Assembly: GCA_022785155.1 (NCBI GenBank)
Contig: JALFRH010000053.1
Span: forward strand, 1-56,268
From: Spirochaetales bacterium
Lineage (GTDB): Bacteria > Spirochaetota > Spirochaetia > Sphaerochaetales > Sphaerochaetaceae
DNA: 56,268 bases
Reading direction: 5' to 3'
A model generated the notes under the pieces. That model was not told the origin of the DNA, did no database searches, and was given only the letters and a program-made list of their open reading frames with translations. The position numbers and the translations under genes were made by a program. Below are positions 224-47,237 of the stretch, in pieces; positions within the stretch are counted from its first letter, which is position 1; every line of letters begins with the position of its first letter.

Positions 224-345
224 GGAATAAGTTTAACCATTTTTTCTTTCAAAGGGTAGGCGTAACCTTAAATAGAGTAAATGGTTTCTATAAGTAGGTA
301 GATTTGCCCTCTAAAATCGGGTTAAAATGACACATGGAGGATATA

Positions 346-870
346 ATGGATTGGACTCTGGCTGTTGGCAGCGTTAATTTTGGCATATTCGATCTTGTTA
401 CCTTTGCCTTGGTATTGATAGCAGGTATTACAGGTATTGCAGTAGGGTTTTCCCGCTCTGCTCTGAAAATGCTATCTTATGTGGTCTCATTTCCTTTGGC
501 TTTATTGTTTGTGGAGCCGTTGTCAGCCTTTATTAGGGAACATGTAGAGATGAAACAGGTATGGGCCAGCCTCATTTCATATATAGTTCTTTGTCTATTG
601 ATATTCATTTTGATAAAATTACTGGGAAACCTATTGGGTGTAGCCTTTGATACGCTGTCCCTTGGCTGGCTCGATTCATCCTTGGGCTTCATTTTCTGTG
701 GCTTCATCGCCTTTATGTTTATCTTTGTATTATTGGAGTTGGCATCTCTCCAGAAATTCGTAGATTTTACACCTTTGAAAGAAAACAGTATCATCTATAC
801 ACAGGTCTTCTGTAGGATCTTTCCTACAATAGACAGAGCATTCAAAGGAGCCTTAGTTGCCATTAGATAA
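346..870 (+). CDS. CvpA-family (colicin V production) integral membrane protein
   Basis: Small protein with about four TM segments and the CvpA-like N-terminus (FDLVTFALVLIAGITG..GFSRSAL). GGAGG at 336-340 lies 5 nt before the ATG at 346. The ATG at 334 is an alternative start. Confidence 0.65.
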   Translation: MDWTLAVGSVNFGIFDLVTFALVLIAGITGIAVGFSRSALKMLSYVVSFPLALLFVEPLSAFIREHVEMKQVWASLISYIVLCLLIFILIKLLGNLLGVAFDTLSLGWLDSSLGFIFCGFIAFMFIFVLLELASLQKFVDFTPLKENSIIYTQVFCRIFPTIDRAFKGALVAIR

Positions 871-17707: not shown

Positions 17708-18565
17708 TTGTTTTATCTTCATAATGAGCACGTGAAAGATAAAACAAAAGATAAACTGACTACTGTATTGAAATCATATGTAATCGGAGCCACCATGACT
17801 GTTCCAGGTGTAAGTGGTGGTTCCATGGCGATGGTGCTTGGCATTTATGATAGGATTATATCCGCCGTACCTGAACTATTGTCAAAGAACTTTAAGAAAG
17901 CCTTTGTCTTTCTTCTTCTGGCAGGCTGCTCAGGATTGATCGGAGCTTTAAGCGCCTCTCCTTTGTTGAAGTATTTATTGAATAACTTCTACATCATAGT
18001 AATGTATTTCTTTTTGGGTGCTATTCTTGGCTCCGTCCCCATGATAATCAGGAAGAGCCAGGTCAATAAAAAGAACTGGCCCAGATTATTCTTTGCTATT
18101 CCTGGAATTATTATAGTATTGATGATTTCTATGATTCCCGAGGGCTTGATCAAGCTTGGAGGAAGCAATGTGCTTCTACAGATTATCTGTGGAATAGGAG
18201 TATCCATCGGCTTTGTTCTTCCAGGTGTTTCCTTCAGTTACTTGCTTGTTGTATTGGGCTTATATGAGAGTCTCATTACATATTTGTCAAACTTGGATTT
18301 TGTTCCTCTTATTCCTCTTTGCATCGGACTGGTCATAGGTATTGTACTTTTGGCAGGTTTGTTGAAGAAGGCTATGGAAAACTGGCCTACAATTACATTC
18401 CCTGTAATAATGGGCTTTGTATTGGGCTCTCTTCCTCAGGTGTTCCCCGGGCTTCCTCAAGGTGCAGCCATTGTATGGTGTCTGCTTTCCTTCGTAATTG
18501 GTGGTGCTATTATATGGTTGACAAGCGGAGAACTTCAATTCGTTAGAAAAAGTGTAGCAAAATAG
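17708..18565 (+). CDS. DUF368-family membrane protein (family recently linked to undecaprenyl-phosphate recycling)
   Basis: VPGVSGGSMAMVLGIYDR and a second LPGVSFSYLLVVLGLYE half-repeat are diagnostic of DUF368. The start is uncertain. The track start is TTG at 17708, and the next in-frame ATG is codon 30. Confidence 0.75.
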   Translation: MFYLHNEHVKDKTKDKLTTVLKSYVIGATMTVPGVSGGSMAMVLGIYDRIISAVPELLSKNFKKAFVFLLLAGCSGLIGALSASPLLKYLLNNFYIIVMYFFLGAILGSVPMIIRKSQVNKKNWPRLFFAIPGIIIVLMISMIPEGLIKLGGSNVLLQIICGIGVSIGFVLPGVSFSYLLVVLGLYESLITYLSNLDFVPLIPLCIGLVIGIVLLAGLLKKAMENWPTITFPVIMGFVLGSLPQVFPGLPQGAAIVWCLLSFVIGGAIIWLTSGELQFVRKSVAK

Positions 18566-18591
18566 ATTTGTTTTTGTTATTCTAAGTCAGC

Positions 18592-18664
18592 GCCAAAATA
18601 GCTCAGTTGGTAGAGCGACACCCTCGTAAAGTGTAGGTCAAGGGTTCGATTCCCTTTTTTGGCT
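18592..18664 (+). tRNA. tRNA-Thr (anticodon CGT)
   Basis: Cloverleaf read by hand: acceptor GCCAAAA/TTTTGGC, D-arm GCTC-AGTTGGTA-GAGC, anticodon loop CTCGTAA, T-arm AAGGG-TTCGATT-CCCTT. One C-A mismatch at the base of the anticodon stem. Confidence 0.9.
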
Positions 18665-18683
18665 ATATTTTTTTTGAGTTTGT

Positions 18684-18873
18684 TGTTGTTTTGAAAGTTA
18701 ACTGGTAATATTCCCTGAAAACCACGCAGAAAGGGTCCGTTTTGGGCCTTTTTTTATTATGGTTTTTTACAACTAAATTGGTAATATACAACCTTTGACA
18801 ACTTAACTGATAATATTCTTCTGCTAAAAACCTTGTTTTCCACTGCAACTATTTACAACTTAACTGGTAATAT
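18684..18873 (+). repeat. Four direct copies of a 22-bp motif (consensus TTTACAACTTAACTGGTAATAT)
   Basis: Copies at 18690-18711 (19/22), 18766-18787 (20/22), 18795-18816 (20/22) and 18852-18873 (22/22). Copy 1 carries an outward extension TGTTGTTTT (18684-18692) shared only with the inverted copy at 19454-19482. Confidence 0.85.
18731..18755 (+). terminator. Rho-independent terminator downstream of tRNA-Thr, lying between repeat copies 1 and 2
   Basis: AAGGGTCC-gtttt-GGGCCTT stem (two G-U pairs) followed by a T7 run. Confidence 0.55.
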
Positions 18874-19476
18874 CCGTTTTTCGTATCTTCTTGTAAGTAT
18901 TAGATGGTATTGAGAATGATAAATCAGGCTCCCGTAGGAGCCTTGGATATGTAGTGAAATGTCGTCATTTAAGAAGTTCCGGAGAGAACTCAACAAGCTT
19001 GATTTCAGTAGGGGATTCCGATATGGCGGTAGCAGGCTTTGCTGGAGTCTCCTTTTCCTAAAAATGCCGGACAACAAGAAGCTATCCGGCAATGAATTCA
19101 AAAGCAGCGGTTTTATGTTGGCTGTCAACCTGGCTATCCTTTCGGATAACTAAAGTCGCCGAAATCGTAAGTCCCCGGCGTGGACTCATCAGTTATCCCC
19201 GATGAGGGCTGGATACCCTTCCGAGCATCTAATTGTCTTGGTACTTACCCTGCCCAAGCGCAGTACAGCTTTTACGTGCCGCTACACGGAACATTCAAGT
19301 TCACAATTACTATACGGAAAAACAGACGCAAAGGCAATGTTTTTTATGAACTTGGACCAACCGGAACGAGATTTGTTAAATCGCCTGTAACGGACTTATA
19401 TTACCTGTTAAGTTTGGAAAAGATTATGGGATATGATCTGGATCGGTGGGGAGAATGTTACCAGTTAAGTTGTAAA
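18852..19476 (+). ncRNA. Candidate large structured RNA of about 625 nt; class unassigned and strand uncertain
   Basis: 18852-18873 can pair with 19455-19476 (21 Watson-Crick pairs plus 1 G-U). The core has no ORF with an RBS. It looks more G+C-rich than the flanking spacers (by eye) and is packed with hairpins, e.g. GGCTCC-cgta-GGAGCC at 18927-18942, GCCGGA-13 nt-TCCGGC at 19066-19090, GGATAACT..AGTTATCC at 19144-19197, CTCATC..GATGAG at 19185-19206, CTTGG..CCAAG at 19237-19258 and CGTG-ccgcta-CACG at 19275-19288. Confidence 0.4.
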
Positions 19477-19482
19477 ACAACA
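19398..19482 (-). repeat. Two inverted copies of the 22-bp motif
   Basis: Reverse complements of 19398-19419 (18/22) and 19456-19477 (21/22) match the consensus. 19454-19482 is a 25/29 inverted match to 18684-18712. Confidence 0.85.
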
Positions 19483-19587
19483 TCCGCTCTCTTTTTCTAT
19501 CTACTTATTCACCGGTTTACACGGAGAAATATTCAGATCCAGAAATAATTAGGGGGACTTTACTCTGTCAGTCAGTCGGATTATCCC

Positions 19588-19608
19588 TTTACTCTTAACA
19601 GTTAATAT
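19588..19608 (+). repeat. Degenerate direct copy of the 22-bp motif
   Basis: TTTACTCTTAACAGTTAATAT has one gap and several mismatches against the consensus. It lies outside the inverted pair. Confidence 0.45.
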
Positions 19609-19741
19609 TTTTCATCGGCCTTGATATCTATCCCGGTCTTATTTTGCTCTAAGTCTTTTTCAATAATGAGAGTTGTGGTATTATCCCATAGGAATTGTTT
19701 ACTTTTAAACATTTCGTACTATATTCTTAAGGGAGGACAAT

Positions 19742-19966
19742 ATGGAAGAGATTATTATCGACCTGTCTCAGGTTCCCATGACACAAGAAGATCTTGCCTC
19801 TCTAGAGGAGCTGATATCCAGGTCCAAGACTATGGGCCCTCAAATTGGTATTCCATGGAATGAAAAGGTATATGATTATATGTTTGAATCAGGAGCCTTT
19901 TTCGATCCAACTCTTTCTATTTTTGGTGACTACATTGAATGGGACCCGGAAGAAGATGATCTATGA
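19742..19966 (+). CDS. Small acidic hypothetical protein (74 aa), translationally coupled to tsaD
   Basis: AAGGGAGG RBS 5-6 nt upstream. Its stop overlaps the tsaD start (ATGA). Confidence 0.55.
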   Translation: MEEIIIDLSQVPMTQEDLASLEELISRSKTMGPQIGIPWNEKVYDYMFESGAFFDPTLSIFGDYIEWDPEEDDL

Positions 19967-21253: not shown

Positions 21254-22924
21254 ATGATTACAGCTTCCAACATTTCTCTTTCTTATGGTACACAAGTTCT
21301 TTTCAAGGAAGTAAACCTTAAATTTACTCCAGGTTTACCTGAAGTAAACCTTAAATTTACTCCAGGTAACTGCTACGGCATCATCGGTGCCAACGGTGCA
21401 GGTAAATCAACTTTCCTGAAGATTCTTTCAGGTGAAATCGAACCTGATTCAGGAGAGATTGTAATCACTCCCGGTGAAAGACTTGCTACATTGAAGCAGG
21501 ATCACTTCAAATATAATGATTATAGAGTAATCGACACTGTAATCATGGGTTTCAAACATCTCTATGACGTCATGCAGGAAAGAGATGCCATCTATTCCAA
21601 AGATGATTTCTCTGAAGAAGATGGATTGAGGGCTGCGGAGCTTGAAGGTGAGTTCAGTGAACTTGGTGGCTGGGAGGCTGAAGCGACAGCTGCACAGATG
21701 CTGGATGGTCTTGGAATCCCTGTAGCTCTTCATGAAAAGAAGATGAATGAAATCGAAGATAACCTGAAGGTAAGGGTACTTCTTGCCCAGGCACTCTTTG
21801 GAAATCCAGATATTCTTCTTTTGGACGAGCCTACCAACCACCTTGACCTTGAGTCCATCCATTGGCTTGAAGACTATCTTGAAGACTTCAACAATACTGT
21901 CATTGTTGTAAGCCATGACAGACACTTCTTGAATACTGTCTGCACCCATATCTGTGATATCGACTATGGCCGTATCCAGCTCTATGTAGGTAACTATGAC
22001 TTCTGGTATATGTCATCCCAGCTTGCTGCAAAGCAGATGAAGGATGAGAAGAAGAGAAGGGAAGAGAAGATTGCGGAACTTAAGGAGTTCATCCAGCGCT
22101 TCAGCTCCAACGTTGCAAAGGCAAAGCAGGCTACAAGCCGTAAGAAGCTTATTGATAAACTCACTATCGATGATATCAAGCCATCTTCACGCCGCTTCCC
22201 ATATGTTGCATTCAAGCCTAACAGGGAAATCGGAAAGAACGTTCTTGAGATAAAGAATCTTTCCAAGACCATTGAAGGTGAAAAGGTCATCGATAATCTC
22301 TCCATAACCATTAATCCTGGTGATAAAGTTGCTTTTGTAGGTCCCAACCACTATGCAAAGACAGTTCTTTTCCAGATCATCAGTGGTGAAATGGAACCGG
22401 ATGAAGGGTCATATACTTGGGGTGTAACCACTTCCCTCAGTTATTTCCCAAAAGATAACTCCAAGATGTTTGGTCCTGGCATAAACATGACGGAGTATCT
22501 CCAGCAGTTCAGCAAGGAGGATGATGACAACTATGTCAGATCTTTCCTGGGAAGAATGCTCTTTACAGGTGACGAGGCTTTGAAGGATTGTGGCGTCCTC
22601 AGTGGAGGAGAGAGGGTAAGAGTCGTTTTGGCCAAGATGATGCTTGAAGGAAACAACTGTCTTATTTTCGATGAGCCTACATCCCACTTGGATCTTGAAT
22701 CAATCCAGGCCCTTAACAATGGTCTTATTGATTTCAAAGGGGTTCTTCTCTTCAATTCCCATGACCATCAGTTTGTAGATTCTCTTGCAAACAGAATCAT
22801 CGAGTTCACTCCAAAAGGTATCATCGATAAGATGGAAAGATTCGATGACTACTTGGTTGACGAAGATGTAAAGGCAAAGAGAGACAAAGCTTACGAAGGA
22901 TATAAAGGAGCTGTTGTAATCTAA
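21254..22924 (+). CDS. ABC-F family ATPase (YbiT-like, two ABC domains, no TM domain)
   Basis: Two Walker A motifs (GANGAGKST, GPNHYAKT), two LSGG signatures and an inter-domain linker rich in K/E. It carries an 11-codon internal repeat just before Walker A. Confidence 0.9.
   Translation: MITASNISLSYGTQVLFKEVNLKFTPGLPEVNLKFTPGNCYGIIGANGAGKSTFLKILSGEIEPDSGEIVITPGERLATLKQDHFKYNDYRVIDTVIMGFKHLYDVMQERDAIYSKDDFSEEDGLRAAELEGEFSELGGWEAEATAAQMLDGLGIPVALHEKKMNEIEDNLKVRVLLAQALFGNPDILLLDEPTNHLDLESIHWLEDYLEDFNNTVIVVSHDRHFLNTVCTHICDIDYGRIQLYVGNYDFWYMSSQLAAKQMKDEKKRREEKIAELKEFIQRFSSNVAKAKQATSRKKLIDKLTIDDIKPSSRRFPYVAFKPNREIGKNVLEIKNLSKTIEGEKVIDNLSITINPGDKVAFVGPNHYAKTVLFQIISGEMEPDEGSYTWGVTTSLSYFPKDNSKMFGPGINMTEYLQQFSKEDDDNYVRSFLGRMLFTGDEALKDCGVLSGGERVRVVLAKMMLEGNNCLIFDEPTSHLDLESIQALNNGLIDFKGVLLFNSHDHQFVDSLANRIIEFTPKGIIDKMERFDDYLVDEDVKAKRDKAYEGYKGAVVI
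21308..21367 (+). repeat. Perfect 27-bp direct repeat with 33-bp period inside the ABC-F gene
   Basis: GAAGTAAACCTTAAATTTACTCCAGGT occurs at 21308-21334 and again at 21341-21367, separated by TTACCT. It encodes EVNLKFTPG-LP-EVNLKFTPG. Confidence 0.95.
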
Positions 22925-46897: not shown

Positions 46898-47218
46898 CCA
46901 GGTTCCTGAAGTAATCGCTTGAAATATAGAGGAAAGTCCGGGCTCCATAGGACACAGTGCTGGCTAACGGCCAGGAGCAGTAATGCTACAGATAGTGCAA
47001 CAGAAAGAATACCGCCGAAAGGTAAGGGTGAAAAGGCAGTGTAAGAGACTACCGCTTATTTGGTGACAAATAAGGCAGGGTAAACCTCACTGGGAGCAAG
47101 ACCAAGTATGTGGGTGGCTTGTCCGGCTATATCCACGGGTAGGTCGCTTGATCTGGTAAGTAATTGCCAGGCTAGATAGATGATTACATAAACAGAACTC
47201 GGCTTATCGGGAACCTGT
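46898..47218 (+). ncRNA. rnpB: RNase P RNA, bacterial type A
   Basis: P1 CAGGTTCC/GGAACCTG. P2 GTAATC/GATTAC. P4 halves GAGGAAAGTCCGGGC and ACAGAACTCGGCTTA. Conserved ACAGAAAGAATACCGCC and GGTAAGGGTGAAAAGG..GTAAGAG elements. Confidence 0.9.
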
Positions 47219-47237
47219 TTTATATTTGGAGGATGAT

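Follow-up and report, generated by a model that had tools for sequence, protein, structure and literature searches.

A candidate orphan RNA of the PBECR4-leader family in the probable remnant of a mobile island downstream of a spirochaetal tRNA-Thr gene

In type III toxin-antitoxin systems the gene for the antitoxin RNA is separated from that of the toxin by a terminator, by which the RNA is kept in excess (PMC5086642). PBECR domains are predicted RNases of the BECR fold (PMC5512222); in the searchable literature they are found only in this role, and no RNA partner is mentioned for them. Tn7-like elements feature arrays of inverted repeats of about 20 bp at both ends, and insert into safe sites downstream of tRNAs (PMC8649781). 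The locus described here, the interval between a tRNA-Thr gene and the next credible gene (start at 19742) in a 56,268-nucleotide (nt) contig from a Spirochaetales bacterium (JALFRH010000053.1, the whole of which is referred to as the window), is compared with all of them. The interval is best explained as a mobile island which inserted ~20 nt 3' of tRNA-Thr and has since decayed; in what remains of it a predicted structured RNA, elsewhere found as the leader of PBECR4 genes, is retained as an orphan and may act as an antitoxin. The identity of the single parts is assigned with high confidence, while the explanation as a whole, including island remnant, orphan RNA and antitoxin role, is regarded as fairly probable.

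A predicted structured RNA on the minus strand

About 250 nt of the minus strand are predicted to encode the RNA, which would be transcribed from a promoter of its own to a terminator of its own. Its three features are the following:

19308 to 19057, minus strand: structured RNA of the PBECR4-leader family, as found by covariance model R1 (284.9 bits)
19309 to 19337, minus strand: sigma-70-type promoter of the RNA, composed of TTGCCT, a 17-nt spacer and TATAGT
19065 to 19091, minus strand: intrinsic-terminator hairpin of the RNA, 11 bp and then UUUUU; 5 of the 11 pairs covary

The predicted fold includes a 5' hairpin (P0), a closing helix (P1, 19284-19279 paired with 19110-19105), hairpins P2-P7 and the intrinsic terminator. 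Two GNRA tetraloops and two candidate pseudoknots are present in every lineage; both pseudoknots are invariant, one pairing GCUGU with ACAGC, the other GUCC with GGAC, interleaved with CGCCGG/CCGGCG (added to the RNAalifold model).

Database read-through "proteins", shifting from frame to frame, first showed that this intergenic DNA is conserved 5' of distant PBECR4 genes. Five lineages, in addition to that of the window, were collected, with PBECR4 proteins 51-57% identical to P0244, the PBECR4 protein of the closest relatives described below. One is a chromosomal locus, located between folA and a P-type ATPase gene (L039), while the others are IMG/VR contigs (L040, L041, L042/L043 and L045). 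In all of them the order is the same: a TTGAYW-17-TATAAT promoter, at the same distance from the RNA as in the window, the 5' hairpin, a conserved domain of ~200 nt, a terminator hairpin with a U-run and, directly 3' of the latter, the ribosome-binding site (RBS) and ATG of PBECR4. The position between promoter and PBECR4 start codon is common to six lineages, and the RNA was found with all eight intact PBECR4 genes examined at an identity of at least 51%.

Ten sequences, from six independent lineages, were used to build alignment A5. RNAalifold predicts 52 pairs, 20 of which feature compensatory double changes. When the 59-pair model, in which the two candidate pseudoknots are included, is applied to A5, 98.3% of the cells pair, versus 28-50% with partners slid by 1-3 columns. 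Double-sided changes are found at 21 pairs, versus 2-5 in the slid controls, and none of 500 shuffles reaches the observed values. Alignment of homologues had been indicated as a check in the initial annotation, and supports the presence of covariation, at 20-21 pairs, for an RNA on the minus strand. The R1 model, in turn, finds the window element at 19056-19308, minus strand, over model positions 1-256, with a score which is partly due to construction, as the window is a training sequence; no other match to R1 is present in the window. The independent lineages score 230-262 bits. A comparable score, 239 bits, is reached by L049, found by pattern scan and not included in the R1 training set. 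In this contig (IMG/VR UViG_3300026522_000212, 345-596, minus strand) the RNA is intact, while the PBECR4 open reading frame (ORF) diverges and stops after about 30 codons, making L049 another orphan, independent of the first.

Decayed coding sequence, or neutral intergenic DNA devoid of RNA function and conserved by recent descent, might produce a similar picture, as the window element is clearly a deletion derivative, and as some assemblies call a 64-amino-acid (aa) ORF (18959-19153) across the core. The region, however, is conserved at ~78%, next to PBECR4 proteins which are only 51-57% identical, and compensatory changes are found at the 20-21 pairs reported above. Insertions and deletions in A5 are not multiples of three and stops are found in every frame, indicating that the region is not coding; the spurious ORFs, moreover, differ in frame and strand between assemblies. 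We consider this explanation very improbable.

Folding energies are in agreement with the minus strand: for 19057-19308 the z-score is -4.2 on the minus and -1.7 on the plus strand. When the core is analyzed without the two complementary arms which surround it (18852-18873 and 19455-19476), the minus strand scores -3.4, while the plus strand, at -1.5, is no better than shuffled sequences. The initial annotation had, instead, proposed one RNA of ~0.6 kb, closed by these arms and likened to the large, ornate ROOL and GOLLD RNAs; it is taken here as a plus-strand RNA of that class. The arms are indeed complementary, with 21 Watson-Crick pairs and one T-G (95%), and such a nearly perfect closing helix, together with a plus-strand z-score of -4.4 for the whole interval, speaks for that proposal; the latter figure, though, includes the inverted repeat and is driven by it. 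The arms are two of six copies of a DNA repeat, described below. In the strain variant L001 the substitutions T18865A and A19474C each break a pair of the helix, with no compensation, and the number of left repeat copies differs in near-identical strains, two being present in L031 and one in L037. The interior of the interval is a patchwork of segments with differing histories and divergence rates, and G-U pairs, promoter, terminator and downstream gene all place the conserved RNA on the minus strand. A conserved, covarying RNA is therefore present, as had been anticipated, but its size is ~250 nt and its strand is the opposite one. The hairpins originally listed all exist: those at 19066-19090, 19144-19197, 19185-19206, 19237-19258 and 19275-19288 correspond to helices of the RNA, while 18927-18942 falls in the adjoining segment A. 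The higher G+C content of the core is also borne out (0.41-0.52 in 18900-19300 versus 0.27-0.37 in the repeat-bearing flanks), as is the absence of any credible ORF between tRNA-Thr and 19742, seven ORF fragments of the core finding no match in Pfam, a result which does not support a decayed gene for a known protein. The proximity to a tRNA gene, which had suggested ROOL or GOLLD, is best explained by the insertion of a tRNA-targeted island. Given also the negative Rfam search reported below, the 0.6-kb RNA is hardly tenable. A near-perfect, long-range inverted repeat beside a tRNA gene is likelier to be a pair of transposon ends than an RNA helix.

The RNA family is undescribed and absent from Rfam 15. 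At gathering thresholds Rfam gave no match for the RNA in the window; at E<=10 a cmscan of 18560-19800, on both strands, returned only the tRNA and noise outside the RNA, with no ROOL, GOLLD, OLE, raiA, 6S, tmRNA, group I/II intron, hammerhead or riboswitch, and six homologous leaders (L038-L045) found no match in Rfam 15 at E<=1. A hammerhead ribozyme was taken into account for the core-like sequence CUGAUGAG-GUCC...GGAC and rejected: there is no GAAA element, other lineages do not conserve CUGAUGAG, and Rfam gives no match. It has become uncommon to come across a structured RNA family of bacteria which covaries strongly and is missing from Rfam; the present family is tied to only one family of proteins, predicted toxin RNases for which no immunity partner is known.

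Loss of the PBECR4 gene and possible role of the RNA

The spurious 64-aa ORF mentioned above is called in other assemblies, and an exact-sequence look-up with it led to contigs L036, L037 and L038. L036 and L038 feature the ancestral arrangement. Left of hairpin 19065-19091 they carry, on the minus strand, a 222-aa PBECR4 gene, coding for P0244, whose only match is Pfam PF18813 (PBECR4, 4e-23) and which matches no PADLOC model. Right of 19345 they carry a divergent 158-aa gene, matching the PADLOC candidate PDC-S57 (2e-25), then a 58-aa gene similar to ribbon-helix-helix (RHH) proteins, and then two repeat copies. What the window keeps of this arrangement is 19057-19375, the intergenic region between the PBECR4 and 158-aa genes, ~320 bp in size, flanked by:

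18874 to 19056: segment A, a spacer standing in place of the PBECR4 gene, with a hairpin at 18926-18943
19346 to 19390, plus strand: remnant of the divergent, PDC-S57-like 158-aa gene, with ATG at 19346, as compared with L038 459-935

Only the first 10 codons of the 158-aa gene (MNLDQPERDL) are left, followed by unrelated sequence and a stop, while the PBECR4 gene is replaced by segment A, and a tblastn search for PBECR4 across the entire window found none. As judged from these comparisons, the PBECR4 gene and most of its divergent neighbor have been deleted from the window, where the predicted RNA is an orphan.

A more diverged copy of the gene-less arrangement is found in L037, where an ISL3 transposase gene lies to the left. 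Between window and L037 the RNA differs at 2 of 252 positions (0.8%), segment A at 14 of 183 (7.7%) and the other flank at 5 of 55; the RNA of L038 differs from that of the window at only 4 positions. Within segment A only 18874-18945 recurs elsewhere, beside the repeats of L038. When L038 85-200 is compared with window 18846-18945, this part abuts a repeat in both, with the repeat in opposite orientations, and in L038 the counterpart of 18874-18945 is situated outside the stretch which carries the genes: the arrangement points to a rearrangement between inverted repeat copies.

By analogy with type III systems, it is tentatively proposed that the RNA may be an inhibitor, or antitoxin, of the PBECR4 RNase, type III-like but non-repetitive. 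PBECR4 would be a toxic RNase, as predicted by its fold family (PMC5512222), and the RNA would inhibit it; one promoter would yield both RNA and toxin, with the terminator keeping the RNA in excess, and the window copy would be an orphan antitoxin, having outlived its toxin gene. No conserved protein partner adjoins PBECR4 in L039-L045. An intact RNA beside a lost or truncated PBECR4 gene is found on two independent occasions, once in the lineage of the window and once in L049. These two orphans, together with an RNA which, between window and L037, diverges less than its flanks, argue for a function in trans.

Several observations weigh against this reading. Gene conversion, with intact modules of the same population as donors, might account for the low divergence of the orphan RNA. 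The RNA has no tandem repeats, unlike type III antitoxins, in which tandem short repeats are processed by ToxN-type toxins, and PBECR4 belongs to a different fold family than type III toxins. Covariation is supported by six lineages only. L036 and L038, finally, are scaffolds with N gaps exactly at the junction between terminator and PBECR4; yet the two overlap across the junction, and L039-L045 are contiguous across it.

The main alternative is a purely cis-acting leader, either a riboswitch or a protein- or RNA-sensing attenuator, gating read-through into PBECR4, in which case the window copy would be a functionless relic. Promoter, multi-helix domain, terminator, RBS and gene follow the standard riboswitch layout in six lineages out of six; unpaired nucleotides are highly conserved, along with the two GNRA tetraloops and the invariant candidate pseudoknots, and the sequence at the center of the terminator stem is conserved to an unusual degree, which hints at a second pairing partner. 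On the other hand, P1 and terminator are separated by an unconserved, A/U-rich linker of 13-20 nt, and no conserved antiterminator was seen by inspection of A5, where candidate alternatives do not covary (no systematic search was made). The survival of intact orphans after gene loss in two lineages, ~10x less diverged than their flanks, is unexpected for an element acting only in cis; and immunity to a stand-alone RNase toxin would still have to be provided by some factor, while no conserved protein partner is seen. All considered, a cis-only role is judged somewhat less likely than inhibition of the RNase.

If the inhibitor proposal holds, the large BECR toxin superfamily would be added to those under type III-like RNA control, with a wholly different RNA architecture, and the tolerance of stand-alone PBECR4 genes in prophages and chromosomes would be explained. 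RNA and PBECR4 could then constitute a new class of RNA-protein toxin-antitoxin or abortive-infection systems, in which a single-copy, pseudoknotted RNA of ~200 nt neutralises a BECR-fold RNase, and orphans persist on mobile islands as stand-alone anti-toxins; such a class is a possibility, put forward with reserve. If the RNA is, instead, a riboswitch, it would be a sensor gating a suicide or defence RNase, raising the question of which signal is read.

PBECR4 finds no match among phage records and one among plasmids, a 37%-identical gene on pCY360 of Butyrivibrio proteoclasticus (L046). Upstream of the latter a region of ~480 nt (L046 2001-2485) ends in a terminator hairpin just before the RBS. 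No match to R1 is found in this leader, not even with filters switched off; it could be either unrelated or very divergent.

The probable repeat-bordered island and its insertion site

The remaining features of the interval, from the tRNA gene rightwards, are the following:

18592 to 18664, plus strand: tRNA-Thr(CGU), by ARAGORN (Rfam, 69 bits), the presumed attachment landmark
18684 to 18713, plus strand: repeat copy 1, the left terminal 30-nt inverted repeat, made of TGTTGTTTT and then a 22-nt site; 87% complementary to 19453-19482
18728 to 18754, plus strand: terminator-like hairpin with T-run, separating repeat copy 1 from copy 2 and also conserved in L001 and L002; it probably ends the tRNA transcript
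18760 to 18787, 18789 to 18816 and 18846 to 18873, plus strand: repeat copies 2-4, all direct; copy 4 contains the left arm 18852-18873
19398 to 19420 and 19453 to 19482, minus strand: inverted repeat copies 5 and 6; the latter forms the right terminal inverted repeat, ends with AAAACAACA and contains the right arm 19455-19476
19594 to 19613, plus strand: degenerate seventh repeat copy, 85% to the repeat family, located beyond the right end and possibly left over from an earlier insertion

The motif ACAACTTAACTGGTAATAT is present in 6 copies with at most 3 mismatches, versus 0.01 expected by chance, and in none elsewhere in the 56-kb window. The repeat unit is 22-28 nt long. On the left, starting 19 nt 3' of tRNA-Thr, four direct copies (starts at 18684, 18760, 18789 and 18846, spaced by 76, 29 and 57 nt) fall within 190 bp; on the right, two inverted copies fall within 85 bp. 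The six copies make eight inverted-repeat pairings, the outermost of which covers 30 nt (18684-18713 with 19453-19482) and begins and ends as TGT...ACA. The long-range "closing helix" is just one left copy paired with one right copy. Tandem Repeats Finder, run on 18600-19750 with a minimum score of 30, reported nothing.

A derivation of the repeats from leucine-rich-repeat genes was also evaluated. The 17-mer AACTTAACTGGTAAYAT is found at 33 loci in viral contigs, and those which were inspected, or which contain multiple copies, are leucine-rich-repeat coding sequences, where the motif encodes NLTGNI. Spacings of 76, 29 and 57 nt, the presence of stops and the inversion of some copies led to rejection of this origin.

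The terminal pattern TGTTGTTTTN5TTAACTGGTAA was used to scan genome contigs (one genome per species), metagenome contigs and viral contigs. Genome contigs gave two true relatives and two chance-like matches; metagenome contigs gave only chance-like matches and viral contigs none. The first relative, a Spirochaetales metagenome-assembled genome (MAG; L002), has the same end 21 nt after tRNA-Thr, followed by the same terminator hairpin and by a group II intron. In the second, a Bullifex MAG (L004), the end, with two sites side by side, lies 21 nt after tRNA-Ala, and an AAA_14 ATPase gene comes next. The distance between tRNA and end is thus 19-21 nt in three genomes and with two different tRNAs. 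The same end after two tRNAs, the TGT...ACA termini and the inverted arrays lead us to read the borders as Tn7-like, an assignment which is probably correct; the 22-nt repeats would most likely be the binding sites of a Tn7-like transposase. The terminal inverted repeat of 30 nt combines 8-9 terminal bases with a 22-nt site, which is the design of Tn7 ends.

Evidence contrary to a Tn7-like island was also obtained. Its flanks, TTTGT on the left (18679-18683) and TCCGC on the right (19483-19487), lack a 5-bp target-site duplication; no second copy of the element is present in the 56-kb window; and no transposase gene associated with these ends was found, either in the window or in related contigs, and none of tnsA, tnsB, tnsC and tnsD/tniQ was found in either. 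No full-length relative emerged from the pattern scans of genome, metagenome and viral collections: related contigs sharing the end are too short or carry other cargo, and the 0.8-kb element is itself geneless. The AAA_14 ATPase of Bullifex, when followed as a lead towards complete elements, yielded nothing but fragmentary members of a very common family. Phage and plasmid collections, searched with the locus by blastn, gave no match.

The absence of both target-site duplication and transposase would also suit an integrative element, with the repeats serving as arm-type sites of a tRNA-targeting tyrosine or serine recombinase, or as operators of a cargo regulator. The island adjoins a tRNA gene, its direct and inverted repeats resemble multiple protein-binding sites, and one match to the terminal pattern, in a Bacteroidales MAG (L003), falls close to the 3' end of an integrase-like gene (the protein was read by eye). 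That match, though, is at chance level for the pattern. At three loci the island starts 19-21 nt past the 3' end of the tRNA and not within it, no direct repeat of the tRNA 3' end (an attR-type core) is found at the far border, and the terminal copies feature an additional, conserved TGTTGTTTT...AAAACAACA extension with TG/CA tips. An integrative element is accordingly judged improbable, and Tn7-like ends are preferred.

Relatives of the locus, gathered through the neighboring DUF368 protein, show that the interval between tRNA-Thr and the 74-aa/tsaD genes is a variable hotspot. L014, a 79%-identical relative, carries 2.6 kb there, with a metallophosphoesterase gene, a 370-aa gene (its protein finds no Pfam or PADLOC match) and degenerate repeat copies (L014 6548-8329); homology with the window resumes at 19654, and 19483-19653 is not common to both. 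In L020 the hotspot spans 4.4 kb, in which a hydrogenase gene is accompanied by a DDE transposase fragment, and in L006 it is occupied by an AraC/ABC cluster; neither has repeats.

Closer relatives also vary at this site. The first ~100 bp after the tRNA (window 18668-18765, L001 6961-7060) are ~75% identical in L001, versus ~99% on both sides; this stretch covers repeat copy 1 and the terminator hairpin, and suggests a segment swapped by recombination. In L037 the C-terminal end of an ISL3-family transposase (L037 3-272; Pfam DDE_Tnp_ISL3, 8e-16) lies 30 nt before the terminal TGTTGTTTT of the element. Either the element occupies a second genomic location there, or an ISL3 insertion occurred between tRNA and element; the evidence for a second location is ambiguous, the short flank resembling the tRNA-Thr spacer. 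The group II intron of L002 (7020-7602; Rfam RF02001, 118 bits, and RF01998, 37 bits) is located directly 3' of the terminator hairpin, and a fragment of this intron abuts the PBECR4 gene in L038 (1910-2199). Class C introns are known to insert after terminators.

Two features of the window lie outside the interval. The ABC-F ATPase gene at 21254-22924 contains, relative to L001, an in-frame insertion of 33 bp (window 21305-21370), in which the 27-bp sequence gaagtaaaccttaaatttactccaggt is duplicated, with the copies separated by ttacct; it adds LPEVNLKFTPG just before Walker A, resulting in 556 aa versus 545 aa in L001, L014 and L036. A bacterial RNase P RNA of class A, found at 46899-47221 (286 bits), is ordinary and unrelated to the finding.

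Comparison with described systems

Among mobile elements, the Tn7-like group (Tn7, Tn5053, Tn552, CRISPR-associated transposons and miniature derivatives) shares with the island arrays of inverted ~22-bp sites at both ends, asymmetric in number and spacing, and TGT...ACA termini, here TGTTGTTTT at 18684 and AAAACAACA at 19482. A fixed, short distance downstream of a tRNA gene and a defence- or toxin-like cargo are also in common (PMC8649781). In contrast with that group, the window element has neither tns genes nor a 5-bp duplication, is only 0.8 kb long and is internally rearranged.

ROOL, GOLLD, OLE and raiA are, like the present RNA, structured non-coding RNAs found on mobile or prophage DNA, here near a tRNA gene. 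They differ in size, 0.6-0.8 kb versus ~250 nt, and their covariance models find no match here. The present RNA, moreover, consistently leads one protein family, and its proximity to a tRNA derives from the insertion site of the island.

Riboswitch and attenuator leaders also feature a covarying domain of aptamer size, between a promoter and a terminator, directly 5' of the RBS of a gene. Here, by contrast, no overlap between domain and terminator and no conserved antiterminator were found by inspection; the gene in question codes for a predicted toxin RNase, rather than for a metabolic or transport function; orphans persist without it, and no Rfam riboswitch family matches.

Type III systems (ToxIN, CptIN, TenpIN, AbiQ) are organized, as are six of the six gene-bearing lineages described here, into one promoter, a non-coding RNA, a Rho-independent terminator and a gene for an endoribonuclease-type toxin. 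The predicted H-type pseudoknot of the RNA, the location of the module on prophages or mobile islands and the absence of a protein antitoxin are further similarities; in the window, promoter and terminator of this layout are kept, while the PBECR4 gene is lost. In place of tandem repeats of 34-45 nt, however, the RNA is a single, non-repetitive, multi-helix domain of ~200 nt, and its presumed partner is the BECR-fold PBECR4, rather than ToxN/AbiQ, CptN or TenpN.

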